A DNA stretch of 61,310 nt, taken from IMG/VR virus record IMGVR_UViG_3300032360_000004, positions 1 through 61,310 of that record; one strand, 5' to 3'. Every line of letters begins with the position of its first letter. Position 1 is the first letter of the stretch. The notes below the pieces were generated by a model. That model was given only the letters and a program-made list of their open reading frames with translations. It searched no databases and was not told the DNA's origin. The position numbers and the translations under genes are program-made. This DNA comes from a virus. Its lineage: Duplodnaviria; Caudoviricetes. Positions 2,143 to 59,167 of the stretch are shown piece by piece.

Positions 2143-2744
2143 ACGCCCACCCAGATTTCCACAGCAACGCCACCAGCATTAGCGGGTTCATAGGTGGCAA
2201 AGCCCTACACCGTATACGTAAGAAGTACGAGGCCATATACATACTGGGGGCACGCGACATAGAGCCTGGAGAGTTAGACAACATACGGGCCGAGGACCAC
2301 GTACACCTAGTAAGCGACGTGGACTACCTTGGCCTGCTGCCCAGTGGTGGCACTCACGTACATATAGACGGTGACGTGCTGGACCCACTGGTTAACCCAG
2401 ACGTGTCGTACCCGGTACGTTGGGGGTACACGGTGCAGGGCTTGGCTAACGTGCTGCTGCGGCTACCTGTAAGCCAGCTACAGGGCTGGTCGGTTAGTAA
2501 CATGGCCCCCGAGCTATTGGATGACCTGTGTAACCTGCTGCGTGGTCCTACGCTGTGCAGTGCTTGCGATGGCCCGTTCAACCTGGAAACCGAGGGTGGC
2601 CAGTGCGGTACCATCGGCACGTTTATAAACGTGGCCTTCTGCCCTACCTGCTTTGCAGGTATCTATGACATGGTGGACCAAATGAAACCACCCACCCCGT
2701 GCAACAAGTGCGACCGGGTGGGTGGGTGTGCGTCCCAGGGATGA
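2064..2744 (+). CDS. Arginase/agmatinase (ureohydrolase)-like protein with C-terminal Cys-rich zinc-finger extension
   Basis: WVDAHPD, ILGARDIEPGE and HVHIDGDVLDP metal-binding motifs. C-terminus has CxxC...FCPTC...CNKC. The start is uncertain and overlaps the upstream gene. Confidence 0.75.
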   Translation: MWSRGPQIYNRCHQFNAVPGQALVWVDAHPDFHSNATSISGFIGGKALHRIRKKYEAIYILGARDIEPGELDNIRAEDHVHLVSDVDYLGLLPSGGTHVHIDGDVLDPLVNPDVSYPVRWGYTVQGLANVLLRLPVSQLQGWSVSNMAPELLDDLCNLLRGPTLCSACDGPFNLETEGGQCGTIGTFINVAFCPTCFAGIYDMVDQMKPPTPCNKCDRVGGCASQG

Positions 2745-2859
2745 CCCTCACAGGGCTTTACCGCTACTACTGTGGTAGTAGTGGAAAACGCACCCACCCG
2801 TAATACGCCAGTATACTGCTGGTTTACCCGTTTGCAACGGTTGTTTTTATGTCGCCCCC

Positions 2860-2890
2860 TTGCCCTGTACCGGGGTTACCGTGCTACCAT
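2860..2890 (+). promoter_or_regulatory. Candidate sigma70-like promoter upstream of the structured leader RNA and late operon
   Basis: TTGCCC-19 bp-TACCAT with an extended -10 TG, in an intergenic region. Confidence 0.3.
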
Positions 2891-2973
2891 GAGGGTTATG
2901 GGGTTGCAGGGCTTTACAGGCCCGTAGGCAGCCCCGTAGGGTACCCCAGCGTGCCCGTACATCTAACCCCCCG

Positions 2974-3133
2974 GTGCCACCACTGAAAACCCACCTTTCC
3001 TCCATGTTCTCTACGTGCGTTATGCGTTGCTACGGCTACCCGGCTGTCCGCTTGCTCCGGCTAGTAGGTTGTGCTGTGAACTGCGTAGCGTGTTGCATGA
3101 GAACAGTGTGGTTAGTAGGTGGTGGCACTTTTT
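2974..3133 (+). ncRNA. Rod-like structured RNA with GTCCGCTTGCTCCGGC at its apex (anti-RBS element 1)
   Basis: Nested stems GTGCCACCAC(2974-83)/GTGGTGGCAC(3119-28), TGTTCTC(3005-11)/GAGAACA(3099-3105) and GCGTTATGCG/TGCGTAGCGT, followed by a T tract. The many G.U pairs favour the + strand. Confidence 0.6.
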
Positions 3134-3163
3134 ACACCCCCAGTTATGTAGGGACCATCTACC

Positions 3164-3544
3164 ATGGCTAACGAAGCCCGAGTGAGCAGTAACCTGACCC
3201 TAACTAAAGGTAACCTGGACTACGCCAGCCGACCCAGCAGTTTTACCGCTGATGTAGCTACGGCTAACCCCACTGGGCCTACTCCAGGTAGCATACTGGT
3301 AGCAACTGCTGGTACGGACATTGTTCTGACCCAGCTAACCACCCCCGGCTATGTGGTGTTAAAGAACTATGACGATACTAACTTTGTAGAGTACGGTATA
3401 TGGGATGGTGGAACATTTCACGAGCTAGGTGAGGTGCAAGCCGGAGAGCAGTACGTCCTGAGGTTTAGTCGTAACCTGAGTGGCTTCCGGCTTAAAGCCG
3501 ATACGGCTGCGTGTGAATGTAGCGTGGAAGCTTTTGAAGCGTAG
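3164..3544 (+). CDS. Hypothetical beta-rich protein, probably virion-associated
   Basis: 126-aa ORF, first gene of the late operon. Resembles 24862..25365. Confidence 0.7.
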   Translation: MANEARVSSNLTLTKGNLDYASRPSSFTADVATANPTGPTPGSILVATAGTDIVLTQLTTPGYVVLKNYDDTNFVEYGIWDGGTFHELGEVQAGEQYVLRFSRNLSGFRLKADTAACECSVEAFEA

Positions 3545-3583
3545 ATCGTTTTACACTACCTTATAGCCATTGGGATAACTTGG

Positions 3584-8277: not shown

Positions 8278-11200
8278 ATGCCAGTTACACAGTGCTACCA
8301 TGAGGGTGCCCCCGGCTACCGCTGGGGGCAGCAGGGTACGTGTTACACGGGCTTGGGGGCCAAGGCTAAGGCAATCAAGCAGGGGCGTGCTGCAAGGGCA
8401 CAGGGGGCCACACAGGGGGCTACACACAACGCCAAACAGTCAACACGCAAGAAGGTAGCCAGCCCCTTACGGGCCGACCCTACCCGTACCACCACGCTCC
8501 GCCGTAGGTTTGAGACCGAAATGCGTAAGCGGTTTAACCGGCTAAAGGCGAAGATAAAACACCTATTAGTTGTGGAGGATGTGTTTGGACTACGGCCCAA
8601 AAACCTTAATCCATTAAGTATTGGCAATACGCTGGGGAGCCCCCGCAATGAGGCAACCATGGGGGTGGCTAACATTGGGCCTCCTGCTAACCACGCCGAG
8701 AGCATCTCGGCCTCCCCAGTATATAACCAGCGGTGGCGGTTCCTAACAGACGACGCCAAGGTGGACCAGTTTGGTCAGTGGCTGGGTACTCAATACCCAG
8801 ACATAGTACCAGGAGAACTAGGCAACGTGGACGACGCATGGTTTACAGCCTACACTGAGGAGGGCTACCGCAAGGGGGCAGGCCGGGCGTTTGACGATGT
8901 GCGTAAACCCATGCTAGCTAGCGGCAATGAGGGGAACATGAGTTGGTTCGCTGGCAGCCGGGATGAGTTTCTAAGACAGAGCTTTGCTCGCCCCGTGGCC
9001 ATAGGCAAAGTTAAGCTATTAGCTGGACGGGTGTTCACAGAGTTAAAGGGTGTGACACAGACTATGAGCCAGCAGCTAACCCGTGAGCTAGCGGACGGGC
9101 TGGTACAGGGTATGAGTCCCCGTGAGATATCCCGTCGCATGGCCAACCGGGTGGACAACCTCACCCGTACCCGTGCCAATGTTATAGCCCGGACAGAAAT
9201 AATACGTGCTCACGGTGAAGGCCAACTAGACGCCCTGGAAACCCTAGGCGTTGACAAGGTGGGCGTTATGGCTGAATGGTCAACCACTGGGGATGACCGG
9301 GTGTGCCAACTATGCCTACCCCTGGAAGGCTCGGTCCTGAGTGTTAAAGAAGCCCGTGGCCTGTTACCCCGTCATCCTAACTGCCGCTGTGCCTACGTAC
9401 CTGCCATGCCTGACTGGCTAGAGAAACCACCTCCCACCCAGCTACGTACCAAGGCCAAGGTAGATAAGGCTTTTGAGAAAAGTATAAGAGGGGAGATCCC
9501 CAAGGGGCAACTCCGTAAACGTAGTCTGGCCCAGCAGAAAGCCCGCAGCCGTTGGCCGGGTGCAGATAGGAAAATACGTAAACGTCCTCGTCGTCGGCCA
9601 GTAGATGTACCCCAACCCGGTGCCCGTGCTGGTGTACCTAAGGAGTGGATGGCTGAACTAACTGAAGCAGAGAAGGCTGAGTTTAAATCATTGGTCAAAG
9701 AGCGAGCCAAACTTAACAAGAGCATAAAGAACCTGGAGGGGAAACTTAGCGACGATGCAAGCAATGTCAGGGCTGCCTATAAGCAGCGGCTTGAAGTGGT
9801 GAAGGGGGACATAAAGGCATACCGTACCCTGATGAAAGAACGGACCGAGGCTAAAGGTATAAAGATCGCCAAGCACCAACCCAAGCCCAAGACTAAGAAA
9901 CCGGCAGCCCCCGAGGCCCACCCAGCTAGCCTAGTAGAGCCACCGGCACCTATTAGAAGCGGCGACATCCTAGATGACATTGCTAACAACCAATACCTGG
10001 ACGACATACAGCGGCAGGTTGTTGCCGCAGGGGATGATCCTTGGATTGAAAAGATGACTAGGGTTTTGGATGACAAGGTAGACGAATCCATAAAGGCTTC
10101 GGACAAGTTATATGACGAGATCCTGGAGGCCAAACAGAAATGGATAAACGCCAACCAGGACGGCATCGTAGGCTTCGAACCTATATACGACGTAGACGGC
10201 AGTAGAGTCCATGACTTTTTTGACACACTAGAGGGTCAGCGGTTTAATAAATTGGCTAGGGAACTGAAGGAAGCCACAACAGCCAACAGGCAGGCATTAC
10301 TAGAGCACCTCACAACAGGTAAGAATAAAGACGTGTACAGGATACTAGAAGTGCTGGAGGAAGACCGAGCACATATAACCTATACACGGGCAAAGACCAC
10401 CCATCACGACCCGTTTGCGGGTGGTAAAACGGTCAGCCACAAAAACAAAACGGATAATCTATTTAGAGCTAAAGCCGATGAAGCTAAGGACTGGCTAACC
10501 AGTCTGACCAGGAGACGGCAACAAGGGCTAAGCCCCGCACAGTTAAAAGAGCTTACCGAACAGATAGGCGACACCAAGAAACTCCTACATGATAACGAAA
10601 TGTGGCTGAAAGCAAAAACTAGGGATTTGGATGAGATGCAAACAATCCTTAGTGATTGGAGGAAAGCAGGAAGCCCATTAGACGATACTGGGCACATACC
10701 TATCACTGGGGAGTTTTCTGCTCAGTCAAACCAGTGGACCGACGCGAAACTTAGGATGAGGATAAAAAAGCTAGAGCTTGATCGAGATGTGTACTTCAAG
10801 GAGGTAGGAGAGACCAGACAGAAAATATGGAAACTAGAGGACGCCCAGAAAATTGCACAGACGGGGGGTAAGGTTGTAGAGTTTGACGGCTTCGACATAC
10901 CGTTGCACCGGCTAAAAACAAAGAAGCGGGCCTTCCAACGGAGCAAGCCTCAGACTACTCAGGGTATTTATTGTAGTGACACCAGCGACGTTAGCACGTT
11001 CATCCACGAGTTTATGCACCGCTACGAGGATGAGATACCGGGACTGCTTAAACAAGCTCAGCAGTTTAAGGATATGCGTATAGCCAGGAGCGGCAAGCCG
11101 GTTGTCAACTTTAAAAAGAAATGGCCGGGTTCCAACTATAAGCCTTATGAGGAGGGTAGTCCAGACGATTTTGAAAAAGTGTATAAGGCTATCGGCCGTA

Positions 11201-11370
11201 CTAGTGAATCGGCGAGTAGGTCTGCCCACTATGTGGGTAAGAGCTACGACGACGCCACAGAGATTTTAACCATGGGCATCCAGATGGTATATGAGAACCC
11301 GGTTGAGTTTGCGAGGGCTGACCCGGAGTGGTTTAAGTTTGTTGTGGGTATGTTAAAGGGGACTCTCTAA
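8278..11370 (+). CDS. Head morphogenesis protein (MuF/SPP1 gp7) with long C-terminal extension ending in an HExxH metallopeptidase-like domain
   Basis: RANVIARTE, WSTTGDDRVCQLC and PRHPNCRC MuF core; C-terminal TFIHEFMHRYE...TEILTMG. Confidence 0.85.
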   Translation: MPVTQCYHEGAPGYRWGQQGTCYTGLGAKAKAIKQGRAARAQGATQGATHNAKQSTRKKVASPLRADPTRTTTLRRRFETEMRKRFNRLKAKIKHLLVVEDVFGLRPKNLNPLSIGNTLGSPRNEATMGVANIGPPANHAESISASPVYNQRWRFLTDDAKVDQFGQWLGTQYPDIVPGELGNVDDAWFTAYTEEGYRKGAGRAFDDVRKPMLASGNEGNMSWFAGSRDEFLRQSFARPVAIGKVKLLAGRVFTELKGVTQTMSQQLTRELADGLVQGMSPREISRRMANRVDNLTRTRANVIARTEIIRAHGEGQLDALETLGVDKVGVMAEWSTTGDDRVCQLCLPLEGSVLSVKEARGLLPRHPNCRCAYVPAMPDWLEKPPPTQLRTKAKVDKAFEKSIRGEIPKGQLRKRSLAQQKARSRWPGADRKIRKRPRRRPVDVPQPGARAGVPKEWMAELTEAEKAEFKSLVKERAKLNKSIKNLEGKLSDDASNVRAAYKQRLEVVKGDIKAYRTLMKERTEAKGIKIAKHQPKPKTKKPAAPEAHPASLVEPPAPIRSGDILDDIANNQYLDDIQRQVVAAGDDPWIEKMTRVLDDKVDESIKASDKLYDEILEAKQKWINANQDGIVGFEPIYDVDGSRVHDFFDTLEGQRFNKLARELKEATTANRQALLEHLTTGKNKDVYRILEVLEEDRAHITYTRAKTTHHDPFAGGKTVSHKNKTDNLFRAKADEAKDWLTSLTRRRQQGLSPAQLKELTEQIGDTKKLLHDNEMWLKAKTRDLDEMQTILSDWRKAGSPLDDTGHIPITGEFSAQSNQWTDAKLRMRIKKLELDRDVYFKEVGETRQKIWKLEDAQKIAQTGGKVVEFDGFDIPLHRLKTKKRAFQRSKPQTTQGIYCSDTSDVSTFIHEFMHRYEDEIPGLLKQAQQFKDMRIARSGKPVVNFKKKWPGSNYKPYEEGSPDDFEKVYKAIGRTSESASRSAHYVGKSYDDATEILTMGIQMVYENPVEFARADPEWFKFVVGMLKGTL

Positions 11371-15405: not shown

Positions 15406-15423
15406 CCCCACTAGGGGAAACCC

Positions 15424-15462
15424 GCTACCCGGTAGCCGTAACCTATGCGGTTGCCGGGTAGC
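15424..15462 (+). terminator. Long hairpin downstream of the MCP (terminator or stability element)
   Basis: GCTACCCGGTAGCCGTA-loop-TGCGGTTGCCGGGTAGC, with no clear U tract. Confidence 0.55.
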
Positions 15463-15509
15463 TGGGCCTACCCCGTTTACTACCTAACCACTCAACCAGG
15501 AGCGAGATC

Positions 15510-35476: not shown

Positions 35477-36508
35477 GTGCAACCGTACCAAGACCTGGAG
35501 CACAAGTACGGCCAGTGGATAGGCAACCCCAACACGGTGGCCTGTGCTACCGGTACGGCTGCCCTGCACTTAGCCCTGGAAGCCTTATGTCTGCCACCGG
35601 GCAGCGAGGTGTTAGTGCCCGAGTTTACCATGGTGGCCTGTGCCCGTGCGGTAACCATGGCCGGGCTGGTGCCTGTGTTTGTAGACTGCGATCCCACCAA
35701 TCTACTGGTAAGCCCCAAAGCCTACAGCCAACATATAGGACCACGCACCAGAGCCATAATGGTGGTCCACATATATGGCCGACAGTGTGACATGGTAGGC
35801 GTGTCCACATTAGCAGCACAGCACAACCTAGCCGTGGTAGAAGACCTAGCCGAAGCCCACGGCATAGCACCCCACCCGGCCAGCACCGCAGCCTGCTGGA
35901 GTTTCTACCGGAACAAAATTATAGCCGGTGAGGAAGGTGGTATGGTGGCCTTTAAGCAACAGGCCCACGCCACCAAGGCACGCCAACTACGGAGCCTGGG
36001 ATTCACCCCCGACCATGACTTCAAACACATACCACGGGGCGTTAATGCCCGACTGAGCAATTGCCACGCCACGCTAATACTAGGAAGCCTAGCCACCGTG
36101 GAAGACAACCTGACCAAGCGAACACAGGTGTGTAACTGGTACGACCAGCTAGTGCCCCCGGCCTACCACCAGCCACCCCGTGCAGTGTGCTGGGTGTACG
36201 ACATATGCCTACCATCGGAAACTAACACCTCGCTCCTGGTCAGCAAGTTAAACACGGCAGGGGTGGCAGCCCGTCTAGGGTTTAAGCCCATGAGTGAGCA
36301 ACCAGAATACGCAGCCCCGGTGCAGCACCTAGCCGCTTACCGGGCCAGCAGGCAGGTGGTGTACCTACCAGTACAGCCACGCCTGGAACAGCCACAAGTA
36401 CGGAAGACCGTACAGGCGTTACTGTCAGCCATTCAGTCCCAGTCCCCGCCCTGCGGCATGGGTCCGCTCGCTCCGGCACGTGCCTGTGGGGTGGGGCTGG
36501 GGCGTTAG
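35477..36508 (+). CDS. DegT/DnrJ/EryC1/StrS PLP aminotransferase
   Basis: TGTAALHLAL, VHIYG, VVEDLAEAHG, SFYRNKIIAGEEGG. Confidence 0.93.
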   Translation: MQPYQDLEHKYGQWIGNPNTVACATGTAALHLALEALCLPPGSEVLVPEFTMVACARAVTMAGLVPVFVDCDPTNLLVSPKAYSQHIGPRTRAIMVVHIYGRQCDMVGVSTLAAQHNLAVVEDLAEAHGIAPHPASTAACWSFYRNKIIAGEEGGMVAFKQQAHATKARQLRSLGFTPDHDFKHIPRGVNARLSNCHATLILGSLATVEDNLTKRTQVCNWYDQLVPPAYHQPPRAVCWVYDICLPSETNTSLLVSKLNTAGVAARLGFKPMSEQPEYAAPVQHLAAYRASRQVVYLPVQPRLEQPQVRKTVQALLSAIQSQSPPCGMGPLAPARACGVGLGR

Positions 36509-37035: not shown

Positions 37036-37052
37036 GCAGTGCACACTCCTTA

Positions 37053-37183: not shown

Positions 37184-39013
37184 CTAGCTAACATACACCA
37201 GCACCTTAGCAGCACGAGTGATAGCCACGTAACGCAGGTTCATTTCCTGGTCACGTTGCCATGCACTCTTAGCCATGGGGTGTGGGATACCCGCACCTTC
37301 CGGCTCCAGCAAAAACACCCGGTCGGCTTCTAACCCCTTGGCCTTATGTACACTGCTCAGCATGATGCCGGGAGTGTTTCGGTCGTTAGTAAATATCTGC
37401 TCGATCTTACTAATGACGTCCGCAATACTCTGGGCTTCCTCAGTGAAGCACAGCAGGCAATCGTGCCGGTCTTGCAAAGCAATGAGCCGGGCCGAACTGG
37501 GATTACGCTTAGCGTTTTCCTTTCGTTCTTCTGCGTGCAGCCAGTCAGTCAACCGGCCCACTAGGTTAGGTACGTCAGATGCCTTAAGCCTATTGACGGT
37601 GCTAATGAGACCTTGACCAATGTCCCGTCCCTGGATGTTAGCCTGCACCCCGTCTTTAATAAACCTAAAGCACTCACTGACCAGCGGAGCATTAACACGG
37701 CACAGTACCATGTCGCCACCTGTGGCTATGGTGCGGTAATTACCATCACCCTTATACGCAGCCCGTAGCACGGTGCCAGGACCGTTGTCGGGGTGGGCTT
37801 CAAAGTCTGGTACCAACGCACGGGCCTCTTCCACTATGGCCTTGCCACAACGGCGGGTCACTGTCAGTGGCAAACTAGTGCAGCCCCGGTTAGTCTCGCT
37901 AAGGATCTCTTCCAGGCGGGGTATGCTGTCACTGTCCGCACCGGCAAACCCGTAAATAGCCTGCTTGGGATCACCACACAGTACCAGCCTACTGCCTACC
38001 TTCAGGGCAAGCTGCTGCTGGCAGCGGTTCAGGTCCTGGGCTTCATCAACCAGCAGCAGATCGTACTGGGTGACGGGCAGGTCCAAGGCCACGGGTAGCC
38101 ATATCATGTCGTCGAAGTCTATGCACCCGTCACGGGTCACATCCTTACAACGGTCAAGCACTCGGGGCACAAGGTCAAACACTTCAGCCTCGCTACCATT
38201 AAGCTCCACGTCATAGTGGGCTGCCAGTTGTTGCAACTCATCCTGCATAGTAGTTAGCAGGTTGGTCTGAGTAGCACCCAGTCCCACGAGGTTCATCTTG
38301 CACAGGCTAACCAGCTTGGCAGTGGCCCGGACCATGGACCGTTTCTTCTCATCCCGTCGCAGGGCACGGCTATCCTGGCCCAGCAACTCAGCCACAATAT
38401 CCTGCACCCGGTACTGGTTAACCTTCACCCGGCCACAGGCTTTACCTACAGCCTTAAAGCCCATGCTGTGCATTGTCATAGCTTCACAGCCTGCGGGTAC
38501 CCGCTGCTGCAACTCTGTGGCGATGGACTTATTAAAGGCGACGAAGCAGATGGTGCGGACCTTACCTGCACTCAACTGCATAGCGTCCCACACGGCTGCC
38601 TGCTGGGGGCTGGGGGTTAGGGGGCTGGTGCCACCCTGTACCAGCTTTAACCCTTCCACCAGTGTGGTGGTCTTGCCAGTACCAGCCCGTGCAATAACAA
38701 CCAAGTGCGGTGCCGTGCACCGTATCAACGGCCTGTCCCCACGTAGGACATTGGCCAACCCAATACTGGGCTCCTGGTGTGGCGGGATACCACCAAGCCC
38801 TGTGCCGTCGTTGGCACAGGCGTCGGTGCTGTTGAGGCAGACAAACCTAGCAGCACTACGAAACGTATGTTCCAACCCGGTTACAGGCTCAGTGACAGTG
38901 TACCGGGTACGACCCCGGCTGTTCTGTGTAATAGCGTCCACACGTACGGACGTCTGCTCGCCACCCACTGTGGCCACATATAGTCTTCCCTGTTCAATCT
39001 GTGATTTCCTCAT
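37184..39013 (-). CDS. UvrD/Rep-like SF1 helicase
   Basis: ARAGTGKT, VDEAQD, GDPKQAIYGFAGA, SSVHKAKGLE, YVAITRA. Confidence 0.93.
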   Translation of the reverse strand: MRKSQIEQGRLYVATVGGEQTSVRVDAITQNSRGRTRYTVTEPVTGLEHTFRSAARFVCLNSTDACANDGTGLGGIPPHQEPSIGLANVLRGDRPLIRCTAPHLVVIARAGTGKTTTLVEGLKLVQGGTSPLTPSPQQAAVWDAMQLSAGKVRTICFVAFNKSIATELQQRVPAGCEAMTMHSMGFKAVGKACGRVKVNQYRVQDIVAELLGQDSRALRRDEKKRSMVRATAKLVSLCKMNLVGLGATQTNLLTTMQDELQQLAAHYDVELNGSEAEVFDLVPRVLDRCKDVTRDGCIDFDDMIWLPVALDLPVTQYDLLLVDEAQDLNRCQQQLALKVGSRLVLCGDPKQAIYGFAGADSDSIPRLEEILSETNRGCTSLPLTVTRRCGKAIVEEARALVPDFEAHPDNGPGTVLRAAYKGDGNYRTIATGGDMVLCRVNAPLVSECFRFIKDGVQANIQGRDIGQGLISTVNRLKASDVPNLVGRLTDWLHAEERKENAKRNPSSARLIALQDRHDCLLCFTEEAQSIADVISKIEQIFTNDRNTPGIMLSSVHKAKGLEADRVFLLEPEGAGIPHPMAKSAWQRDQEMNLRYVAITRAAKVLVYVS

Positions 39014-39243
39014 CGTGCTTGCTCCTTAGTGTTGGGCCTCTTACGGCCACGGGGATAGCCCTTGGGCTGTGGTGTGTCGCGGTATAGTTCCGCGTCATGT
39101 AGTGCAATGGTGTAGCGGTAGCCGTGCTGGTTATTACGAGTAGGTACCCGTCGTGCCCGCAACCGGCCCACACGTATAAGGGTGCGGACCTGTTGCGGAC
39201 TACAGCCTATAACCTTGGCTGCCTGAGCAGGGGTTAATACCAT
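39010..39243 (-). CDS. Excisionase-type HTH protein
   Basis: LTPAQAAKVIGCSPQQVRTLIRVGRLRA. Confidence 0.8.
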   Translation of the reverse strand: MVLTPAQAAKVIGCSPQQVRTLIRVGRLRARRVPTRNNQHGYRYTIALHDAELYRDTPQPKGYPRGRKRPNTKEQAR

Positions 39244-39250: not shown

Positions 39251-40792
39251 TCACTTCTTGTAGCAGGAAAGTAGTTCAGGTAGGTGGCCCAACAACAGGC
39301 CAGCCATGTCAGTCAGCTTGTTGGCGTAGTTCTCGTCATGGTCCAGGTAGCCCATGCCATGCACCAACTCATGTACAGCGGTTATAGCCAACTGGTGCAG
39401 GTCACCCCTTGCCCGGTTGGGACTGTAGTTATAACGGCGAGTATACTTGCCGTCCGCAATGTTAACCGGGTTGAGGTAGTACACCTTGCCGTGCTTCTCA
39501 GTACATTCGTACTGAGCCAGCACGTCGTCATCGCTGAATATAAAGCCCACTGTAAACTGGTCATCCCAGCCGTACACCTCATGCAGCTTGACCAGCAGCT
39601 TGGTCCAGATGGTCATGATGCGGTAGGCATACTTGCAGAAGTCCGGGCTATCCGGCCTGTACTGCTTTTTAACCTTGTAGCCAGTTTCATTCTTAATGAC
39701 GAAGGCACTGGCCAACACGTACACACCGGCATCCACCATCTGCTGGTGTTGCTCGGGGGTTGGCTGGCTGCCGTCCAGGTTAAACTTTATCTGGCCGTAG
39801 TGCTGCTCCACCACTGGCCGGTTATCATACTGGCCAGTGTCGCCACTGGTAACTACGTCACCAAGACTAGGACCACCCTCTTCCGCAGGGCGTGCCGTCA
39901 CGGTCTTAGCTGCCGTGGTCTTGGCTGCGTGCTTGGCTGCCTGTGCAGCGAAGCCAGTGCAGGCCACCTTATCGCCCTCGTACCGCAGGTACTCTATGGG
40001 CTTAGGCTTCAGTGCCTTACGCTTGTTGGTAATCAGGTCAGTTAGAAACTCATCCAACTGGGCCTGTTGCTGCCAACGCAAGCCGTCCCGGTTGGACATC
40101 AGCACGTCGCTGCTAATACCTTCCAGTTCTACCACCACACACCCGTCGTACTTGGTGGTCTGCGTGAACATGGGCGTACCACCAATCCTCACAACCAGTA
40201 ACCGGCTGGCCTGCTTGTTGGTGTACACCCGGCCGAAGGGCAGGTCGCGACGGTAATAGCCCCGTCGCATACCGCCATCCACTTGCTCACCGTTCACAGT
40301 AAACGTGCACCGCACGTTACTAAGACTGATGAACCGCTTAGCCTGTTGTAACAGGTCAGCACCGCATTCCTCAGGTATGGTGATGGTGCTGGTAGTGCCT
40401 TCCAGGCGTGGGGCATTGCGTCGCAACTTGTAGTTAGCCCCGGTACCACTGACTTCCAGCCTACCTGTGTGAATCTTGAAGGCTTCCCAGCAGAAGTACA
40501 GCAGTTCCTTGGCTTTGCCAAAGCCACCCACGCTACCGTCGGCAAAGTCTTTACCACTGGCACCCAGTGCCAGCAGCTTGCCAACCAGAGTATCCTCGGT
40601 CATAGGGCTACCGTTGTTGGCCACTATAACCGTGGTGCAGCCACCACCGGCTTCCCTGATGGTAACGTCCACCTGTTTGCTGCCGCAGTCTATACTGTTC
40701 TGGAAAAACTCACGCAGCAACGCCCACTGCCAGTTACGGTAGTCATTACGGGCCTTGCTAAAAAACTCAGGACTAATAGTTATCTGGGACAT
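39251..40792 (-). CDS. GHKL (HSP90/MutL-like) ATPase with C-terminal HExxH domain
   Basis: LLREFFQNSID, NNGSPM, SGK, GGFGKA; C-terminal AVHELVH...H. Confidence 0.8.
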   Translation of the reverse strand: MSQITISPEFFSKARNDYRNWQWALLREFFQNSIDCGSKQVDVTIREAGGGCTTVIVANNGSPMTEDTLVGKLLALGASGKDFADGSVGGFGKAKELLYFCWEAFKIHTGRLEVSGTGANYKLRRNAPRLEGTTSTITIPEECGADLLQQAKRFISLSNVRCTFTVNGEQVDGGMRRGYYRRDLPFGRVYTNKQASRLLVVRIGGTPMFTQTTKYDGCVVVELEGISSDVLMSNRDGLRWQQQAQLDEFLTDLITNKRKALKPKPIEYLRYEGDKVACTGFAAQAAKHAAKTTAAKTVTARPAEEGGPSLGDVVTSGDTGQYDNRPVVEQHYGQIKFNLDGSQPTPEQHQQMVDAGVYVLASAFVIKNETGYKVKKQYRPDSPDFCKYAYRIMTIWTKLLVKLHEVYGWDDQFTVGFIFSDDDVLAQYECTEKHGKVYYLNPVNIADGKYTRRYNYSPNRARGDLHQLAITAVHELVHGMGYLDHDENYANKLTDMAGLLLGHLPELLSCYKK

Positions 40793-40907
40793 GGTGTGCT
40801 TGCTCCTAATTGTGGCACATAGTTATATGCCGGGCCAATCATTATAACCGCTAACCGCCACACACCACAACCACCCCCCGGTGGGGTGGTGTGGTATGTG
40901 TAAGAGG

Positions 40908-41105
40908 CTAGGCGTCGTTCATCTTAGCCATCTGCCTCAGTACCCTAGCCCGGTCGCTACGGGTGAGGTCACGCAACGGGTACAACGCAGCAAGGGCGTA
41001 GGTACGTACATCGTGTACCGTCATGCCCCGCTTCCGGGGTAACCGTATGCCTAACCGTTTACGCTGCTCCGGGGTTAGGTCTTCCACACTAATAGTTCCT
41101 GCCAT
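40908..41105 (-). CDS. Small basic early protein
   Basis: GGAGCAAGC RBS. Confidence 0.65.
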   Translation of the reverse strand: MAGTISVEDLTPEQRKRLGIRLPRKRGMTVHDVRTYALAALYPLRDLTRSDRARVLRQMAKMNDA

Positions 41106-41145
41106 ACGCTTGCTCCTAGTTGTGGGCCAGTGGCCCGGTTAGTTC

Positions 41146-42777: not shown

Positions 42778-43152
42778 CTAGCAGTCCGAACCAATCGTGG
42801 GGCAGCAGTGAGCAGAGTTGCACCGGTACTTAGGAGTGATGGTCCCAGCGTTGTAGGGAGTCATCGGGTTGCCGCACTCACCACATGAGGGTCGGCGGGT
42901 TTTCTTGGGGGCCGGTAGTGGCAAAGCACAAATCCCATCTGAGTCAATGACATTGTAAGCGGCTTGGAGCAGGCTGACCTGTGCAGCCCTTTCCTCTTTG
43001 GTCTGGACCCACTCTTGCACTGGGTACAGGTCAGCACTGGTGAGGTAGTGGATCTTACACAGGGCGTCCAGGTCTTTGTTGTTGATGGCAGTGGCGAGGG
43101 CGTTGTTGAAGTCAGTCGCGTTTGTGATGAAATCCATGTCGAAGTCGAACAT
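42778..43152 (-). CDS. Hypothetical protein with C-terminal Zn ribbon
   Basis: GGAGCAAGC RBS before MFDFDMDF; CGECG...YRCNSAHC. Confidence 0.65.
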   Translation of the reverse strand: MFDFDMDFITNATDFNNALATAINNKDLDALCKIHYLTSADLYPVQEWVQTKEERAAQVSLLQAAYNVIDSDGICALPLPAPKKTRRPSCGECGNPMTPYNAGTITPKYRCNSAHCCPTIGSDC

Positions 43153-43227
43153 GTGCTTGCTCCCGGTTATGGTTGGTAGTGGTTGGTGTGGTCTAGTAGT
43201 AGTATCGGTCGCCGTGCTCAACAGACT

Positions 43228-43940: not shown

Positions 43941-45416
43941 CTACTCAGGCCGTAGGCAGTCCAGCGGTACGTCATAGGTGTTACCGGTTTCATTGTCCTC
44001 CACTTGGGCAACGGTGCCTGCCGGGCCTTGGTACGTGTCCTGCAGAATGCCCTTCCACGGTTTGGTGTTAGGGTCATCTACCAACACCCGGACTCCTGCC
44101 AACTCACCTTCCCACGTCCACGTCCCTGGGATCGGGTCTTTGGCCTTAGACGGCTTGGCCTTTTTCTTACCCCGGCCACCCGCCTTCTTGGCTTCAGCCT
44201 TTGCCCGTTCGGCTGCTGCACGGGTGGCAATCTCTTCCAGGCTGGGGTCGTTGGCTGCTGCCACTTCAGCCGGGTCGCCTAGGTCAATGCCACCCACGTC
44301 AGCCGTCTCGGCCAACGTGCGAAACCCGTCTGGGTCTGTGTGGTAGTCCAGCACTAGGTGTTTGGCAGTAACAGCCTTACCTGTGGCGTACTGGTTCCAA
44401 GCCTTGGCCAGCAGCCCGGTACGCTCAGGTACGCTACCACCACCGTCGTCCACCATGTGGGCTAGTGCTACCCGCACTGCCTTTAGTTGGTTGTCACTAC
44501 CAGCCAACCACACCAGGAAATCACAGGCATCCTCCCACTGGGCAAAGTCCAGCAGGTCTTCGCTGGGGTTACTGGCTGCCCGGTACTCAGCCGGGTCGGT
44601 ACCGCTGCTGCCCATCAGGTACAACATACCAGCCATATAACCAAGGCTCAGGTAGCGAGACAGTTGCTTGTCCCCCCCGTCCTCTTGGTACACGTGCTGC
44701 ACACAGTCCAGCAGCTTGGGGTGACGGGCAATAAAGTCCAGGGCTTCAGCATGGGTCCGCCGTGGGGCATGAGCACTAAGCCCCATACCAGTACGGCTCC
44801 ATAACAGCCGCACCGCATAGTCAGTAATGCGGGCCACCTTGCGTCGTGCCACGCTGGGCATATTGGCAAAGTGGTTGCTGCGGTAGATGACGTCGGCCAA
44901 GCTGCGAGGCTTACACGTGTCCATGGTATTAATCACGTGGTCCTCCTCACTGATGCCATACACCACCAGCTTTACCATGGTGGGTTGCTGGGTATGGCCG
45001 GGCCAGTCTTCTGGGGCTTCTTGCCATGCCTCCGCTGCCAGTATGAAACTGATAAGCGTATGCTGGCCATTCAGCACCAACCCGGTGGAGCCAATAATGA
45101 CCGGCTCCCCGTTCATCTGCCACCGTTGTCGCAGGTGTTCCTGCTTCAGCATTTGCACCACGCCACCATACAGGGGTCGGTTGGTGACATTGTTGTAGCA
45201 CCGGATCTTAGTGCCGTGGTGGTTTCGCAGCAGGTAGTCACTGCCATAGGGGGCGTCCTCAGTTTCCTCTTCCCAACCTAGCAAGTCCTTAGCTTGGTCT
45301 ACGGTCAGGGGTTTGCTGTCATCACACAGGGACAAGGTTACTTCCGGGTACAGCACCGTACGACCATTAGTATCCGTCGCGGTGGTGCTGGTTTTCTTCT
45401 TGGGTGCTTTAGGCAT
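43941..45416 (-). CDS. ParB/DndB-like (DGQHR-type) protein with Lys-rich linker
   Basis: NRPL...WQMNGEPVII...GLVLNGQHTL, DTCKPRSLAD. Confidence 0.65.
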   Translation of the reverse strand: MPKAPKKKTSTTATDTNGRTVLYPEVTLSLCDDSKPLTVDQAKDLLGWEEETEDAPYGSDYLLRNHHGTKIRCYNNVTNRPLYGGVVQMLKQEHLRQRWQMNGEPVIIGSTGLVLNGQHTLISFILAAEAWQEAPEDWPGHTQQPTMVKLVVYGISEEDHVINTMDTCKPRSLADVIYRSNHFANMPSVARRKVARITDYAVRLLWSRTGMGLSAHAPRRTHAEALDFIARHPKLLDCVQHVYQEDGGDKQLSRYLSLGYMAGMLYLMGSSGTDPAEYRAASNPSEDLLDFAQWEDACDFLVWLAGSDNQLKAVRVALAHMVDDGGGSVPERTGLLAKAWNQYATGKAVTAKHLVLDYHTDPDGFRTLAETADVGGIDLGDPAEVAAANDPSLEEIATRAAAERAKAEAKKAGGRGKKKAKPSKAKDPIPGTWTWEGELAGVRVLVDDPNTKPWKGILQDTYQGPAGTVAQVEDNETGNTYDVPLDCLRPE

Positions 45417-45678
45417 TGGTTTGGTCTTTCTTGTTGGGGTGTGTGCTTGCAATAGGGGTTCCCACCTGGACAGGTCTAGGTACGTAGATCCTTAAGGGTG
45501 GGACAGGTGCCTGTGGTTCTTCAGCCGATAACTGCTTCTCCTCTTTAACTGGTTTAGGGTTTCTTACTTCCACCTTAGCGATGCCTTCACTGGCAAGAGC
45601 GTGGACAATCCAATCTTCTTGTGGCGGTTCCAGGCTGGCTATATCTATGCCTGCTGGAACACGTACGACCTTTACCAT
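45409..45678 (-). CDS. Hypothetical protein
   Basis: GGAGCAAGC RBS before MVKVVR. Confidence 0.55.
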   Translation of the reverse strand: MVKVVRVPAGIDIASLEPPQEDWIVHALASEGIAKVEVRNPKPVKEEKQLSAEEPQAPVPPLRIYVPRPVQVGTPIASTHPNKKDQTNA

Positions 45679-45884
45679 CTGCTTGCTCCCATCCATGTGG
45701 TTACCTGCTGTTAGGGGCAGGGTAGCCCTACGGCCAATTGACCGGGGGGCTGTTATACACAGCAATTGCTGCCGGGTGCAACCCCAGTTTACCCAGCGGG
45801 TAAAAACTGCACCCCCCTGTACAGCTTGGGCCAGTAGTTTAGTATAAACAGTATGCCACGGGTGGCAGCCAGGAGCACAACACA

Positions 45885-46551: not shown

Positions 46552-46584
46552 GTGGTAAGCTATTACTAAGGAGCAAGCACACCA

Positions 46585-47142
46585 ATGGCCACACGTTACC
46601 AAGCACACCGTAAGAAATGGATAGACTGTACGGCTTGCCCTTTGCACCAAGGACGAACACAGGTGGTGCTAGCCCGTGGCCACCTACCTGCCGACATACT
46701 GTTTGTGGGTGAGGCTCCTGGTGCTAGTGAAGATGTACTAGGGCGTCCGTTTGTTGGGCCTGCTGGGCACCTGTTAGACAGCATAGTGGACCAAGCCTTG
46801 GACGCAGTACCCGGTATAGGTGTAGCTTTCACCAACCTAGTAGCCTGCATTCCTAAGACTGGGGCAACAACTGCTAAGATTGGCGAACCGCCTGCACAGG
46901 CTATACAGGCGTGCAATCCTAGGCTGCTGGAACTCATTGACCTATGCCACCCCCAGTTAATAGTGGGCGTGGGGGTACTGGCTACCAAGCACCTGGAAGC
47001 ACTAGACTCCTCTATGGTCATGGTTATTAGTATTGTCCACCCGGCTGCCATATTGCGTATGGACATCAGTCAACGGGGGCTAGCAATACAACGGGCCACC
47101 ATAGCTTTGGAAGACGCAGCCACAGAACTAGTCCCATTTTAA
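46585..47142 (+). CDS. Uracil-DNA glycosylase family 4 (Fe-S)
   Basis: CTACPL, FVGEAPG.SED..GRPFVGPAG, TNLVACIP, HPAA. Confidence 0.92.
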   Translation: MATRYQAHRKKWIDCTACPLHQGRTQVVLARGHLPADILFVGEAPGASEDVLGRPFVGPAGHLLDSIVDQALDAVPGIGVAFTNLVACIPKTGATTAKIGEPPAQAIQACNPRLLELIDLCHPQLIVGVGVLATKHLEALDSSMVMVISIVHPAAILRMDISQRGLAIQRATIALEDAATELVPF

Positions 47143-47158
47143 GGAGCAAGCAACAGCC

Positions 47159-48202
47159 ATGGCTATTACACCCATCTGGCAAGGCCCGGAAAAAGACGGT
47201 ATCACCCAGTCGCTGCTTGGTAGGTTTCTGTCCTGCCGTGAACGGTTTCGGCTATTAGTAGTGCACGGGTTAAAACCTGTGGACACTTTTAGGCACGCCC
47301 TGGAATACGGTCAAATGTGGCACGCCTGCGAGGAAGCCCACGCAGACGGTGCCGACTGGGCTGAAGCCCTGCAAGAATACTGCCAACCACTGGCCCGGCA
47401 ATATCCCACCCAGCAAGAGCAGGTACAGCACTGGTACCGGGTATGTAAAACGCAGTTCCCTATATACGTAAAGTATTGGGCCAAGCACCCCGATGTTAAA
47501 AACCGGGAACCACTAGTACAGGAGCAGACGTTTAACATTCCCTATGAGTTACCCAGTGGGCGTACCGTGCGGCTGCGGGGTAAGTGGGACAGCGTGGATG
47601 TCATTGGCAAAGGCAGCCGGGCCAAAGTGTACCTACAGGAAAACAAGACTAAGGGTGATGTAGACGAGGAACAACTCAAACAGCAACTACAGTTTGACCT
47701 ACAGACCATGCTGTACCTAACAGCCATGCACATGGCAGGCGACCCCACACAGGCGTGGCCCCACAGCATTGCCGGGGTACGGTACAATGTAGTACGCAGG
47801 CCACTAAGTGGTGGCAGGCACAGCATACGGCAGCACAAGCCCACCAAGAGCAAGCCCCAAGGCGAAAGCCAGGATGAGTATTACAATCGGTTAGGTGGGC
47901 TTATAGCCAGTGACCAGGACTTTTTCTTTATGCGATGGAAGGCAGTGGTAACTGATGCAGACGTGGAAACATTTAAACAGCAGTTCCTTAACCCAGTGCT
48001 AGAACAACTCTGTCAGTGGTGGGACCACATTACCACCAACCTGGAAGACCCATTCCAACCCAGCAACACTACCCACTACCGTTACCCGTTTGGAGTATAT
48101 AACCCGGTAGGTGTGGGCCGAGCCAGTGAACTGGATGAGTACCTGTCCACAGGCAGTACACTGGGCCTGCAAGAAACCGACACTGTATTTCCGGAACTGT
48201 AA
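47159..48202 (+). CDS. PD-(D/E)xK RecB/Cas4-like exonuclease
   Basis: LRGKWD...LQENKT, Q...Y motif; paired with the Sak4-like gene. Confidence 0.8.
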   Translation: MAITPIWQGPEKDGITQSLLGRFLSCRERFRLLVVHGLKPVDTFRHALEYGQMWHACEEAHADGADWAEALQEYCQPLARQYPTQQEQVQHWYRVCKTQFPIYVKYWAKHPDVKNREPLVQEQTFNIPYELPSGRTVRLRGKWDSVDVIGKGSRAKVYLQENKTKGDVDEEQLKQQLQFDLQTMLYLTAMHMAGDPTQAWPHSIAGVRYNVVRRPLSGGRHSIRQHKPTKSKPQGESQDEYYNRLGGLIASDQDFFFMRWKAVVTDADVETFKQQFLNPVLEQLCQWWDHITTNLEDPFQPSNTTHYRYPFGVYNPVGVGRASELDEYLSTGSTLGLQETDTVFPEL

Positions 48203-48217
48203 GAGGAGCAAGCACTA

Positions 48218-49072
48218 ATGCCCAACGTAACGAAGCAAACAACCAAGCCCCGTAAGCGTAAGAAGGGTGGCAAGGTAGTTGACCGCATCCAACCTATAGG
48301 CTTTGACAAGAAGGACGGTATAAAGATTAACCTGTACGGACGCAGTGGCACGGGTAAGACCACCCTGTGGGCTACCTTCCCCAAGCCAATACTGGCCGTG
48401 GTATGCAGTGGGGGTAGCCAGCCCGGTGAACTACGCAGCATTAATACCCCGGCCTACCGCAAGACAATTAATCAGGTGGTGATTGAAAGCAGTGAGGAAA
48501 TTAAAGAACTGGTGGAGTACCAGAAGGAAACTAATAAGTATGCCACCATAGTGCTGGACCACGCCACCGGTCTACAGGACTACGTGCTGCGTGAGGTACT
48601 AGGTATAGACCAAGCCCCGGCCCAACTAAGCTGGGGCGTTGCTAGCCAGCAGCAGTACGGGCAGGTAGCTCTACAGATGAAGGAGCGGCTACGTAGCCTG
48701 CTGGACCTAGACTGTAACGTAGTTATAGTGGCCCAGGAGCGGGAGTTTAATACTGACAGCGAGGGTGACCTGCTAATGCCGTTCGTTGGTAGTGCCCTGA
48801 CACCCAGTGTGACGGGGTGGTTAAACCCAGCCTGTGACTATATCTGCCAAACCTTTATCCGACAGGTTTCTGAGCAGGTAACTATTAAGGTAGGCAACAA
48901 GGAAGTTAAGAAAAGCCGTAAGGGTGCCGGGGTGGAGTACTGCCTGCGTACAGCCCCCGACCCTGTGTTCATCACTAAGTTTCGGCTCCCCAAAGGGGTG
49001 GACCTACCAGATGTAATAGTGGACCCAGACTTTGACAACATCAACCAACTCATCACAGGGCAAGGAGGCTAA
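48218..49072 (+). CDS. Sak4-like AAA recombinase/annealing ATPase
   Basis: LYGRSGTGKTT, TIVLD, VIVAQE. Confidence 0.8.
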   Translation: MPNVTKQTTKPRKRKKGGKVVDRIQPIGFDKKDGIKINLYGRSGTGKTTLWATFPKPILAVVCSGGSQPGELRSINTPAYRKTINQVVIESSEEIKELVEYQKETNKYATIVLDHATGLQDYVLREVLGIDQAPAQLSWGVASQQQYGQVALQMKERLRSLLDLDCNVVIVAQEREFNTDSEGDLLMPFVGSALTPSVTGWLNPACDYICQTFIRQVSEQVTIKVGNKEVKKSRKGAGVEYCLRTAPDPVFITKFRLPKGVDLPDVIVDPDFDNINQLITGQGG

Positions 49073-50369: not shown

Positions 50370-50421
50370 CCCAAGGATGGGTTATGGGTGTGTGCTTGCT
50401 CCCTTGGGCCACGGATGGCCC
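50370..50421 (+). ncRNA. Small RNA element: two GGA-loop hairpins flanking the anti-RBS GGGTGTGTGCTTGCTCCCTT (anti-RBS element 3)
   Basis: CCCA-AGGA-TGGG (50370-81) and GGGCCA-CGGA-TGGCCC (50406-21); alternative stem CCCAAGG/CCTTGGG. Confidence 0.6.
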
Positions 50422-55445: not shown

Positions 55446-55467
55446 TCATGACCACCGGGCAGGTACC

Positions 55468-55504
55468 AAAGAAAAACCCCCACCCCCCAAAGGGGGCAGG
55501 GGTT
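55468..55504 (-). terminator. Rho-independent terminator for the histone-like gene
   Basis: GC-rich hairpin followed by TTTTTCTTT on the - strand. Confidence 0.65.
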
Positions 55505-55525
55505 ACAACAGCCGGGCCAGTGGCC

Positions 55526-56332
55526 CTAGCTAAACTTCAACATCTTTGCCAAGCCGGGGGCCGTCAGTTTGGGACCCTTGGCCGCAACCTTGCTGGCCTT
55601 CTTGGGTGCCTTCTTGGCCTTGGCCTTGGCCTTGGCCTTGGGGGCAGCCTTGGGGGCAGCCTTCAGGGTCTTGGTGCCCTTGGCCGTGACGGCGAAGCAG
55701 AACCGTGCTCGGCCGTGGTTGTCCTGGGCCTCATGGCTCTTGATGAGTCCCTGACCTTCCAGGCTGTTGGGGTAGCTGGCACCCTTGCTACTGTTGGCAG
55801 CCATCATGCGGGTCAGCCCCTTCAAGATGCCCGTGGCAACCCGGACGTCATTGTAGGACACGTTGCCCTTGGCCTTGGCCACTGCGGTCAGGATTCTAAC
55901 CTGACTGCCCGTGAGTCCAGCAACCTTGGGGCCAGTGGCCTTGCGGGTCTTGCGGCTGGCCTTGGGGCTGGCCTTCTTGGTGTTCTTCTTGGCAGTCTTC
56001 TTGGCAGTCTTCATAGCTTGCTCCTTGCCACTCTTGGTGGCTTTGGAAACTTGACGGGAGGTACGCTGCCCCGACTTCAGCAACAGAGTGCAGGGCACAG
56101 CCTGCACATTGAGGAAACCTTGATTTGTACGGGTGGCAACCTGCTTGGCAGCCAACTCAGGAGAACCGGCCCAACCCAGCACACCGTCTCCGGGCAGGTT
56201 GTAATGTCTGGTCTCGCCGGTTGCAGGGTGGTGGATCCCAGTGGCCGTAATGCAGTGGGTGTAGGTGCGGGCCGTGGTGCGGGTGTGGATGGTGCCGTCT
56301 TGGGCGGTTATGGTGTAGGTTTTCTTGGACAT
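55526..56332 (-). CDS. Histone H1-like Lys/Ala-rich protein with central winged-helix; second in-frame start at 56014
   Basis: KTAKKTAKK and KAAPKAAPKAKAKAK repeats flank LTGSQVRIL...SLEGQGLI...FAVTAKG. A GGAGCAAGC RBS precedes both 56332 and 56014. Confidence 0.75.
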   Translation of the reverse strand: MSKKTYTITAQDGTIHTRTTARTYTHCITATGIHHPATGETRHYNLPGDGVLGWAGSPELAAKQVATRTNQGFLNVQAVPCTLLLKSGQRTSRQVSKATKSGKEQAMKTAKKTAKKNTKKASPKASRKTRKATGPKVAGLTGSQVRILTAVAKAKGNVSYNDVRVATGILKGLTRMMAANSSKGASYPNSLEGQGLIKSHEAQDNHGRARFCFAVTAKGTKTLKAAPKAAPKAKAKAKAKKAPKKASKVAAKGPKLTAPGLAKMLKFS

Positions 56333-56377
56333 GGTTGCTTGCTCCGTTTGCGTGGGCCGTGTGAATGTCATAAACGA

Positions 56378-56406
56378 ACTATCCCAGTTATCGGCAAACA
56401 GCACAA
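56378..56406 (-). promoter_or_regulatory. Candidate sigma70-like promoter for the histone-like gene
   Basis: TTGTGC-17 bp-GATAGT with a TG extension. Confidence 0.4.
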
Positions 56407-56461
56407 GCCCCCTGCACCTGTTTTGGCAAGTTTGTTATAAATAGCAAGCAAACCCCTCGTT

Positions 56462-58652: not shown

Positions 58653-58669
58653 TAGAGGGAGCAAGCACT

Positions 58670-59167
58670 ATGGACCCAACACAATACCAACAACTGGCAG
58701 CACGCACTGAGTGTGACCAGGAAGCAGCCCGACAACGTGTAGCAACCGACAATATGTTACGCACCACCCGGCTGCTGCACGCCTGCTTAGGATTGTCTGG
58801 AGAGGTAGGTGAGTTGTCTGCTGCTGCCGAACGCTGGGTGTACTACGGGCACGACCTGGATGCAGGTAATGTAAAGGAGGAGGTAGGTGATTGCCTGTGG
58901 TACCTAGCCCTAGCCTGTAACGCCCTAGGCTTGGACATGGCACAGGTGATGGAAGCTAACATAGCTAAGCTGCGTCAGCGGTACCCTTCTAAGTATAGTG
59001 ACGACCAAGCCCTGGAAGTTAACCGTGACCGGGCAGCAGAACGCAGCATAGTGGAAGGTGTCCCCGACAGTGACCAAAACCCCATGGTACAAAATGGCCA
59101 AGGCTGGGCCGAGCCACCTTGGGGATTTAATGCCCACCGATTAGATAACGATAACTGTGATGCTTAG
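58670..59167 (+). CDS. MazG-like NTP pyrophosphohydrolase
   Basis: YQQLAART, GLSGEVGE, EEVGDCLWY, NIAKLRQRYP. Confidence 0.9.
   Translation: MDPTQYQQLAARTECDQEAARQRVATDNMLRTTRLLHACLGLSGEVGELSAAAERWVYYGHDLDAGNVKEEVGDCLWYLALACNALGLDMAQVMEANIAKLRQRYPSKYSDDQALEVNRDRAAERSIVEGVPDSDQNPMVQNGQGWAEPPWGFNAHRLDNDNCDA

Follow-up and report, generated by a model that had tools for sequence, protein, structure and literature searches.

The window analysed here is an entire IMG/VR virus record (IMGVR_UViG_3300032360_000004; Duplodnaviria; Caudoviricetes) of 61,310 nt, with a CheckV completeness of 87%; ahead of its structural gene block lies a long irregular hairpin, which we call rod 1. Rod 1 is a new structured RNA, conserved within a small lineage of uncultured marine phages, and we hold with high confidence that it is a structured, + strand, non-coding element. 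Its tip presents a 9-mer that is the exact complement of a stereotyped ribosome-binding site (RBS) found on 11 DNA-metabolism or neighbouring genes, which upholds the identification of the tip as an anti-RBS in an earlier interpretation made from the letters of this DNA (hereafter the sequence-only reading). We tentatively favour the view that rod 1 is a leader or terminated late RNA, the YUNR-type loop of which pairs with class-specific RBSs; this view draws on sequence comparison and folding models.

The structural (late) block comprises + strand genes from 3164 to about 36508, in the order 126-aa protein of unknown function, TerS, TerL, SNase-like protein and portal, with sugar-modifying enzymes last. 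The DNA-metabolism and auxiliary genes, which include those for helicase, exonuclease, Sak4-like, MazG-like, sulfotransferase, amino-acid:DNA transferase and arginase-like proteins, occupy 37184-45909 on the - strand and, on the + strand, the segment that begins at 46081, runs to the end of the contig and takes in 1-2744 as well. The labels "early/middle" and "late" are used here as deduced from these gene functions. No cultured close relative was found: TerL shares at most 30% identity with its matches among GenBank phages, which also gave no DNA match to the window. The window contig is contained in 24 public sequencing runs, all of them marine or related metagenomes; sequences from X3, X4, X5 and X8 aligned to the window gave only identical contig pieces, with 0 variants and none across the hairpin. 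The features at the head of the late block are as follows.

2810..2818, + strand: AGTATACTG box, a candidate -10-like element with no -35, sole exact copy in the window
2828..2850, + strand: small terminator-like hairpin with a T run, between the AGTATAMTG box and rod 1
2972..3133, + strand: rod 1, long irregular hairpin of about 55 pairs (11 G.U), then T5 (RNA fold; 189.9 bits in cmsearch with its own model)
3046..3061, + strand: conserved apex GTCCGCTTGCTCCGGC, at the hairpin tip
3050..3058, + strand: anti-RBS 9-mer GCTTGCTCC, complement of GGAGCAAGC, formed by the loop plus closing bases
3129..3133, + strand: T tract TTTTT, directly 3' of the base stem and terminator-like (T6 in locus L015)
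3164..3544, + strand: first gene of the structural block, for the 126-aa protein, with TerS, TerL and portal downstream

The RNA fold of 2974-3133 (+) reaches -65.5 kcal/mol (z -4.15), with 0 of 200 shuffles folding as well, and the reverse strand folds less well (-51.1 kcal/mol, z -2.46). All three stems named in the sequence-only reading are part of this predicted fold: a perfect 10-bp base stem formed by GTGCCACCAC (2974-2983) and GTGGTGGCAC (3119-3128), a second stem of TGTTCTC (3005-3011) with GAGAACA (3099-3105), and a G.U-rich middle stem; the tip word and T tract that it described are likewise present. The apical loop is 7 nt long (CUUGCUC; CTTGCTC, 3051-3057) and is closed by CCG/CGG with a bulged T, and across the predicted ensemble its bases are unpaired with a probability of at least 0.97. 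At the other end of the rod, a 12-bp base stem is followed by T5 in the window or T6 in L015, as in a terminator, and the U-rich tract is interrupted in the related loci L096 and L097; the terminator scanner, which is limited to 20 counted pairs and a 3-8-nt loop, makes no call at rod 1, whose base stem encloses a structure too large for these limits. Rod 1 ends 31 nt ahead of the first structural-block gene.

The sequence-only reading could assign the element to no known family, and our searches agree: Rfam at gathering level yielded only tRNA in the whole window, and at a permissive E<=10 the region 2700-3400 gave one unrelated match (E 4.2) and no 6S family. Its remark that the overall shape was loosely 6S-like did not hold up. 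A large central bubble mimicking an open promoter is a feature of bacterial 6S RNA, and neither the minimum free energy fold nor the centroid fold of rod 1 has one, both showing small internal loops and the 7-nt apical loop; likeness to 6S RNA was therefore rejected.

Besides the window, the hairpin stands ahead of the orthologous 126-aa gene in the lineages L015/L095, L096 and L097, where G001 is the contig of L015, L008, L014 and L137, and L095 is the same sequence on another contig. Between the window and G001 the intergenic region is 85% identical, with 33 nt around the tip unchanged. Fourteen of the 48 pairs differ between the window and L015, 4 having changed on both sides and 10 on one side, with 0 broken; the TGTTCTC/GAGAACA stem of the window, for example, is a GCCCC/GGGGC stem in L015. 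A covariance model (R1) built from these two hairpins located the copies in L096 and L097, in which the 126-aa protein is 68% and 65% identical, respectively, to that of the window. The L096 and L097 hairpins are only about 90 nt long and their stems cannot be aligned by sequence, but the apex is kept (GTCYGCTTGCTCCRG among lineages), with the tip word CTGTCCGCTTGCTCCGG in L096 and CTGTCTGCTTGCTCCAG in L097. The single tip change in L097 converts C-G to U-A in the middle pair of the 3-bp stem, at the position just outside the 9-mer, and its base stem is fully compensated, with flanking GAAA and AGUA retained.

The structural covariation that the sequence-only reading had called for is present as compensatory changes among the related hairpins. 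When five hairpins were aligned by fitting to R1, 97.5% of cells were paired and 26 of 48 pairs had changed on both sides (0 of 500 shuffles equal; slid controls, 35-56% pairing), in an alignment biased by its construction towards R1. Anchoring the sequences on the tip without gaps and folding them independently again gave the 3-bp stem and 7-nt loop; both partners had changed in 10 of 15 pairs, and register shifts broke some cells. The folding energies of the five hairpins on the + and - strands are -66.5/-51.9, -73.6/-44.2, -44.0/-34.1, -45.4/-36.3 and -50.5/-35.6 kcal/mol, an advantage of 9-29 kcal/mol for the + strand in each hairpin, and G.U pairs number 5-15 on the + strand and 0-4 on the - strand. 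Thus, the strand energies and G.U counts indicate an RNA in the late-gene sense and argue against a DNA cruciform. In G001 the genes to the left of the hairpin are divergent, and the hairpin is there a leader of the late block rather than the terminator of an upstream operon. The AGTATAMTG box, preceded by TAGTAG-type repeats, stands invariant 5' of the hairpin at each of the four loci that have one, and might serve the late leader as a promoter with a -10 element alone.

The hairpin has a narrow distribution. R1 gave no match below E=2 in 79 loci found through TerL (L016-L094; 80 loci returned), and among 42 metagenome loci and 16 loci on viral contigs found through the 126-aa protein the hairpin was present only in L095, L096, L097 and L137 (=L015); from L098 onward the 126-aa gene directly follows another gene, with no intergenic region. 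The exact 16-mer of the apex occurred in 12 stretches of viral contigs, 1 of them a true homologue (L008) and 11 chance matches, and a search for relatives in genome contigs returned none. L016, with a TerL 66% identical, has a different gene order and no hairpin. The complete relative G002 (60,552 nt) has neither the hairpin nor the stereotyped extended RBS; this genome (L192-L195) has direct terminal repeats, a 126-aa protein 63% identical to that of the window and 47% GC.

The word complementary to the loop, GGAGCAAGC, is the most frequent 9-mer of the contig, with 14 copies on both strands against 0.62 expected, a count reached in 0 of 100 shuffles. Eleven of the 14 copies precede an ATG by 1-7 nt, in each case on the strand that encodes the gene and frequently straight after the preceding stop codon; all 11 fall within the 37-59 kb modules, and none of the structural-block genes has this RBS. 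The remaining three are the tip of rod 1 (antisense), one copy inside gene 8278..11370, and an orphan at 50394-50402. The copy in the gene, at 10940, was rejected as an RBS, as no start codon follows it. The motif is sharp: sites with one mismatch to GGAGCAAGC also number 14, and in only 4 of these, rod 2 (described below) among them, does a start codon lie within 14 nt. The 11 RBS copies and the orphan are the following.

39017..39025, - strand: GGAGCAAGC RBS of the helicase gene 37184..39013
40798..40806, - strand: RBS of gene 39251..40792
41108..41116, - strand: RBS of gene 40908..41105
43155..43163, - strand: RBS of gene 42778..43152
45681..45689, - strand: RBS of gene 45409..45678
46570..46578, + strand: RBS of gene 46585..47142
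47143..47151, + strand: RBS of the exonuclease gene 47159..48202
48205..48213, + strand: RBS of the Sak4-like gene 48218..49072
56016..56024, - strand: GGAGCAAGC before an in-frame internal ATG at 56014
56337..56345, - strand: RBS of gene 55526..56332, with the motif kept in the L015 orthologue
58658..58666, + strand: RBS of the MazG-like gene 58670..59167
50394..50402, + strand: a third, orphan copy of GCTTGCTCC, located on the transcribed strand within the tRNA-Met (50429-50503) 5' leader

The - strand frame in 55526-56404 has two in-frame ATGs (56332 and 56014), each after a copy of GGAGCAAGC, so that a longer and a shorter product may be made; an open reading frame (ORF) on the + strand, 55448..56440, overlaps this frame. 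Read on the - strand, the orphan at 50394-50402 is an RBS word with no start codon following, and as a structured element it was rejected on its local fold (z +0.78). Among relatives, 29 helicase-region loci had no stereotyped 9-mer RBS containing GGAG. One of the loci, L181, has a few GGAGCAAG RBSs, and in L162 the top word belongs to a 12-nt tandem repeat at the end of the locus (12876-12995; about 10 copies of GGAGTGCGGCGC-type units).

A second, paralogous hairpin, rod 2, was located through a weak covariance-model match at the other end of the late block, and its loop matches a second class of RBS.

36436..36503, + strand: rod 2, at the end of the late block, over the last codons of the aminotransferase-like ORF 35477..36508
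36466..36474, + strand: rod 2 loop word GCTCGCTCC, complement of GGAGCGAG(C), one base different from rod 1
15499..15506, 18242-18249, 20102-20109 and 27616-27623, + strand: late-class RBS GGAGCGAG, 2-4 nt before ATGs

Rod 2 folds at -60.3 kcal/mol (z -3.40; reverse strand -46.4 kcal/mol). Its apex (36462-36477, GTCCGCTCGCTCCGGC) is identical to that of rod 1 at 15 of 16 positions, and the bulged U and 3-bp stem recur along with a loop of 7 nt; the only exact occurrences of CCGCTYGCTCCGG are at 3048 and 36464. No U tract follows rod 2. With 7 occurrences (1.12 expected), the RBS word GGAGCGAG ranks joint second among all GGAGNNNN words, behind GGAGCAAG. In G001, GGAGCGAG is kept at the orthologues of the genes at 15499, 18242 and 20102, and GGAGCAAG(C) at five early-type genes, with differing flanks in both cases. 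A - strand copy of GGAGCGAG at 36229, unstructured and inside a gene, was rejected, and the 16-mer of the rod 2 apex found 9 stretches in viral contigs, 0 of them related and none with a similar hairpin. Rod 2, missed in the sequence-only reading, both strengthens the idea of an anti-RBS and complicates the account in which late transcription shuts off early genes.

Each loop has the better calculated duplex energy with its own RBS class: loop 1 gives -15.6 kcal/mol with the early RBS and -13.2 kcal/mol with the late RBS, and loop 2 gives -11.4 and -15.3 kcal/mol, respectively. The loop bases of both rods are unpaired in silico with a probability of at least 0.94, and the loops begin with CUUG (rod 1) and CUCG (rod 2), both matching 5'-YUNR. 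By comparison, the canonical anti-Shine-Dalgarno 13-mer gives -8.2 kcal/mol on the early RBS and accounts for only the GGAG part of GGAGCAAGC. The chance expectation for a fixed 9-mer on one strand of 160 nt is about 0.0008 (derived from 0.62 per contig), and the conserved loop word and the conserved RBS word share the same ends. Structure, strand, conservation, complementarity and in silico loop accessibility have direct support, and the sequence-only reading is partly supported as an interpretation of the hairpin.

In the reading that we favour, rod 1 would be a structured RNA transcribed from the + strand as the untranslated leader of the structural gene block. Its long stem would act as a scaffold and, with the U tract, probably as a terminator or attenuator, such that transcripts begun upstream would either stop there as a short RNA or continue past it and become the 5' portion of the late mRNA. 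The functional element would be the apical module (G, bulged U, 3-bp stem and 7-nt YUNR (CUUG) loop) displaying GCUUGCUCC, which could pair over 9 bp with GGAGCAAGC, that is, with the Shine-Dalgarno sequence plus spacer common to 11 cistrons of the DNA-metabolism modules; pairing in trans would occlude these RBSs and lower their translation once late transcription runs. Rod 2, at the 3' end of the late block, would display GCUCGCUCC, fitting the GGAGCGAG class of several late cistrons, and the phage thus seems to carry two loop/RBS pairs one base apart. Within this scheme, that the RNA is made, when it is made, that it terminates, that it pairs in the cell, which way it shifts translation and what rod 2 does are all inferred. 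A more ambitious version, which is speculative and in our estimation unlikely, would have translational timing carried out by RNA alone, with the RBSs of two gene classes one base apart being read by two loops of the late transcript: the start of late transcription would shut down early translation, the finished 33-kb transcript would tune late translation, and the Shine-Dalgarno spacer would serve as a class-wide "address code" for phage RNA loops.

Several observations weigh against the favoured reading. The sequence-only reading placed a candidate promoter before the hairpin, but a sigma-70 scan of 2500-3700 found no + strand promoter, and none of the 24 runs containing the contig is on record as RNA. 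A stable hairpin is not in itself special here, because the contig holds many other strong hairpins: in a 120-nt sliding fold scan they were common, with rod 2 ranking tenth and rod 1 too long for the scanned segment. The hairpin and the stereotyped RBS occur together in both the window and G001 and are both missing from the relatives examined, which counts in favour of the reading, but this co-occurrence is confounded by the close kinship of the window and G001. The three further hairpin lineages all have the same loop, so that covariation of loop and RBS between phages is absent, and the sole such "covariation" is the pair of rods within one genome. Discrimination between the two classes is not clean, because loop 1 tolerates the late RBS through one G.U pair, at the -13.2 kcal/mol given above. 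A simple shut-off model offers no obvious role for a loop directed against late genes when that loop sits at the end of the late mRNA itself, and two near-identical hairpin tips are also typical of a protein-binding operator.

The last point leads to the main rival, which we judge rather unlikely: that the tips (G, bulged U, CYG, CUYGCUC, CRG, C) are operators bound by a phage or host RNA-binding protein. Such a protein, an antiterminator or a processing or stability factor, would tag both ends (5' and 3') of the late transcript, and the match to the RBS word would be secondary or unrelated. An operator would suit two hairpins with 15 of 16 tip bases identical on unrelated stems, a closing stem that covaries around a fixed loop, and a leader position with two terminator-like elements, which fits antitermination control; lambda's two nut-site hairpins likewise stand one loop base apart. 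What an operator leaves unexplained is that the loop variants exactly complement the first and joint-second commonest GGAGNNNN words and that the conserved 9-mer and the RBS word stop at the same point; moreover, no candidate protein was identified, and the neighbouring 126-aa protein also occurs in relatives that do not have the hairpin. The rods might instead be plain structures at transcript ends, rod 1 a terminator, attenuator or RNase III-type processing hairpin and rod 2 a 3' stabiliser, with loops that have no pairing partner and a complementarity due to chance or shared ancestry. The GC-rich base stem immediately followed by T5 or T6, the abundance of strong hairpins in the contig, some with U runs, and stems that change freely while pairing stays would all be expected of such structures. 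We nevertheless find this improbable: only about 0.0008 chance copies of the 9-mer are expected, the apex is the only part conserved down to 65% protein identity, the one-base change in rod 2 matches the other stereotyped RBS, and rod 2 has no U tract.

Pairing could also be real and serve another end, such as protection or activation of RBSs (shielding from a RegB-like nuclease), a long-range fold in cis in the case of rod 2, or titration of ribosomes or another factor by the RNA. This draws on the same complementarity as the favoured reading, rod 2 and its matching RBSs are on the same long transcript, and in T4 an extended GGAG consensus is the target of a nuclease specific to one gene class (PMC3014915). 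Nonetheless, a 9-bp duplex over the Shine-Dalgarno sequence would be expected to block initiation rather than help it, and the Shine-Dalgarno sequence of the gene adjoining rod 1 complements the loop by 4-5 nt at most, that Shine-Dalgarno sequence being absent in the window and L015; we consider another role distinctly improbable. For a signal at the DNA level (a terminase recognition site, origin or recombination site formed by the inverted repeat by terS), the location of the hairpin 450 nt upstream of terS and the repetition of the 16-mer in direct orientation 33.4 kb away could be cited, but each hairpin has 5-15 G.U pairs, which would count as mismatches both in DNA and on the opposite strand, and one-sided changes move between G-C, G.U and A-U, which makes such a signal very improbable. 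A small protein we discount almost entirely. The ORFs 2974..3171 (65 aa), singled out in the sequence-only reading, and 3015..3185 (56 aa) were rejected as the reading frame is not conserved: frames are open in both the window and L015, but indels of 1, 1 and 2 nt separate the two hairpins, and the L015 frame corresponds in its middle to the 65-aa frame of the window and at its end to the 56-aa frame. In addition, the L096 and L097 hairpins are only about 90 nt long, and there is no Shine-Dalgarno sequence.

Other features of the contig are as follows. The intergenic regions 2745-3163 and 36509-37183, which bound the late block, have short words in common: TTACAGGCCCGTA is present in both in opposite orientation, and GGCCCGTA and GCCCGTACA are repeated several times. 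The convergent gap that separates the late block from the - strand module contains a gene for a small helix-turn-helix-type transcriptional regulator (36787-37035, - strand). The segment 305-2744, bordered by a gene that ends at 308 and by the hairpin region, holds the sulfotransferase, amino-acid:DNA transferase (ADDT) and arginase-family genes, which suggest DNA base hypermodification; L096 has the same gene flanking this block without such an insert. Very strong local hairpins are at 15341-15480 (+; z -7.1), 20281-20420 (+; z -5.7), 40795-40930 (-; z -4.5) and 43811-43945 (-; z -4.4), and none of the four carries the anti-RBS word; the last, with a 15-bp perfect stem followed by U7, is probably a terminator.

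The phage small RNAs (sRNAs) known to work through pairing (c4, sar, OOP, StxS and lambda sRNAs) are individual cases, and the known class-wide shut-off of early translation, by T4 RegB, uses a protein. If the pairing proposed here is real, a single small RNA would read the spacer beside the Shine-Dalgarno sequence as the regulatory address of a gene class; the naturally occurring pair of loop/RBS variants, one base apart, would be a built-in compensatory test, and the system would offer orthogonal RBS/anti-RBS parts for synthetic biology. If it is not, rod 1 would still be a new conserved structured RNA from an uncultured marine phage lineage.

Our searches, which covered an open-access literature collection, turned up no phage RNA described as having a loop that matches an RBS word shared by a whole gene class. 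The bacterial 6S RNA (SsrS) is similar to rod 1 in size and in being mostly double-stranded, and differs in that the conserved part of rod 1 is the apical loop. The C-rich-loop sRNAs of Firmicutes (RsaA, RsaE and RNAIII) have loops complementary to Shine-Dalgarno regions and many mRNA targets; they pair with the generic G-rich Shine-Dalgarno sequence, whereas the word here spans the Shine-Dalgarno sequence plus a phage-specific spacer and exists in two variants. By position, the closest systems are the terminated late-leader RNAs of lambdoid phages, lambda 6S RNA and StxS: structured RNAs of about 75-200 nt, terminator-ended and right before the late genes, from which read-through yields the late mRNA. 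StxS is presented as a trans-acting sRNA that works by base pairing in PMC7547250, and lambda 6S RNA, of about 194 nt, has one early-operon RNA among its RIL-seq partners and a role described as undetermined, according to bioRxiv 10.1101/2024.10.31.621285. Rod 1 has no sequence or Rfam relation to either, its proposed targets are the phage's own stereotyped RBSs across a whole gene class, and it is accompanied by a second paralogous hairpin at the end of the operon; neither a lambdoid Q-type antiterminator nor the corresponding late promoter was identified here, no search aimed at Q-like proteins having been made. The YUNR U-turn loops of antisense RNAs are described as scaffolds for fast initial pairing in PMC4152353, and rods 1 and 2 have the sequence pattern alone in common with them.

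By mechanism, the closest systems are the c4 RNA of phages P1 and P7 and, as its protein counterpart, T4 RegB. In c4, phage RNA loops pair with words around the RBS and block translation (PMC12197685); compared by description only, rod 1 has the c4-like feature of an exposed loop with a 9-nt exact complement to 11 RBSs, but c4 acts on one operon (ant) in immunity, whereas here one 9-mer stands on 11 cistrons in several operons on both strands. In T4, an extended GGAG RBS word on early mRNAs marks a temporal gene class for shut-off (PMC3014915). The words differ and the reader in T4 is a nuclease helped by S1, whereas the candidate reader in this phage is an RNA loop; what the two have in common is an extended, GGAG-containing RBS word that marks a gene class.

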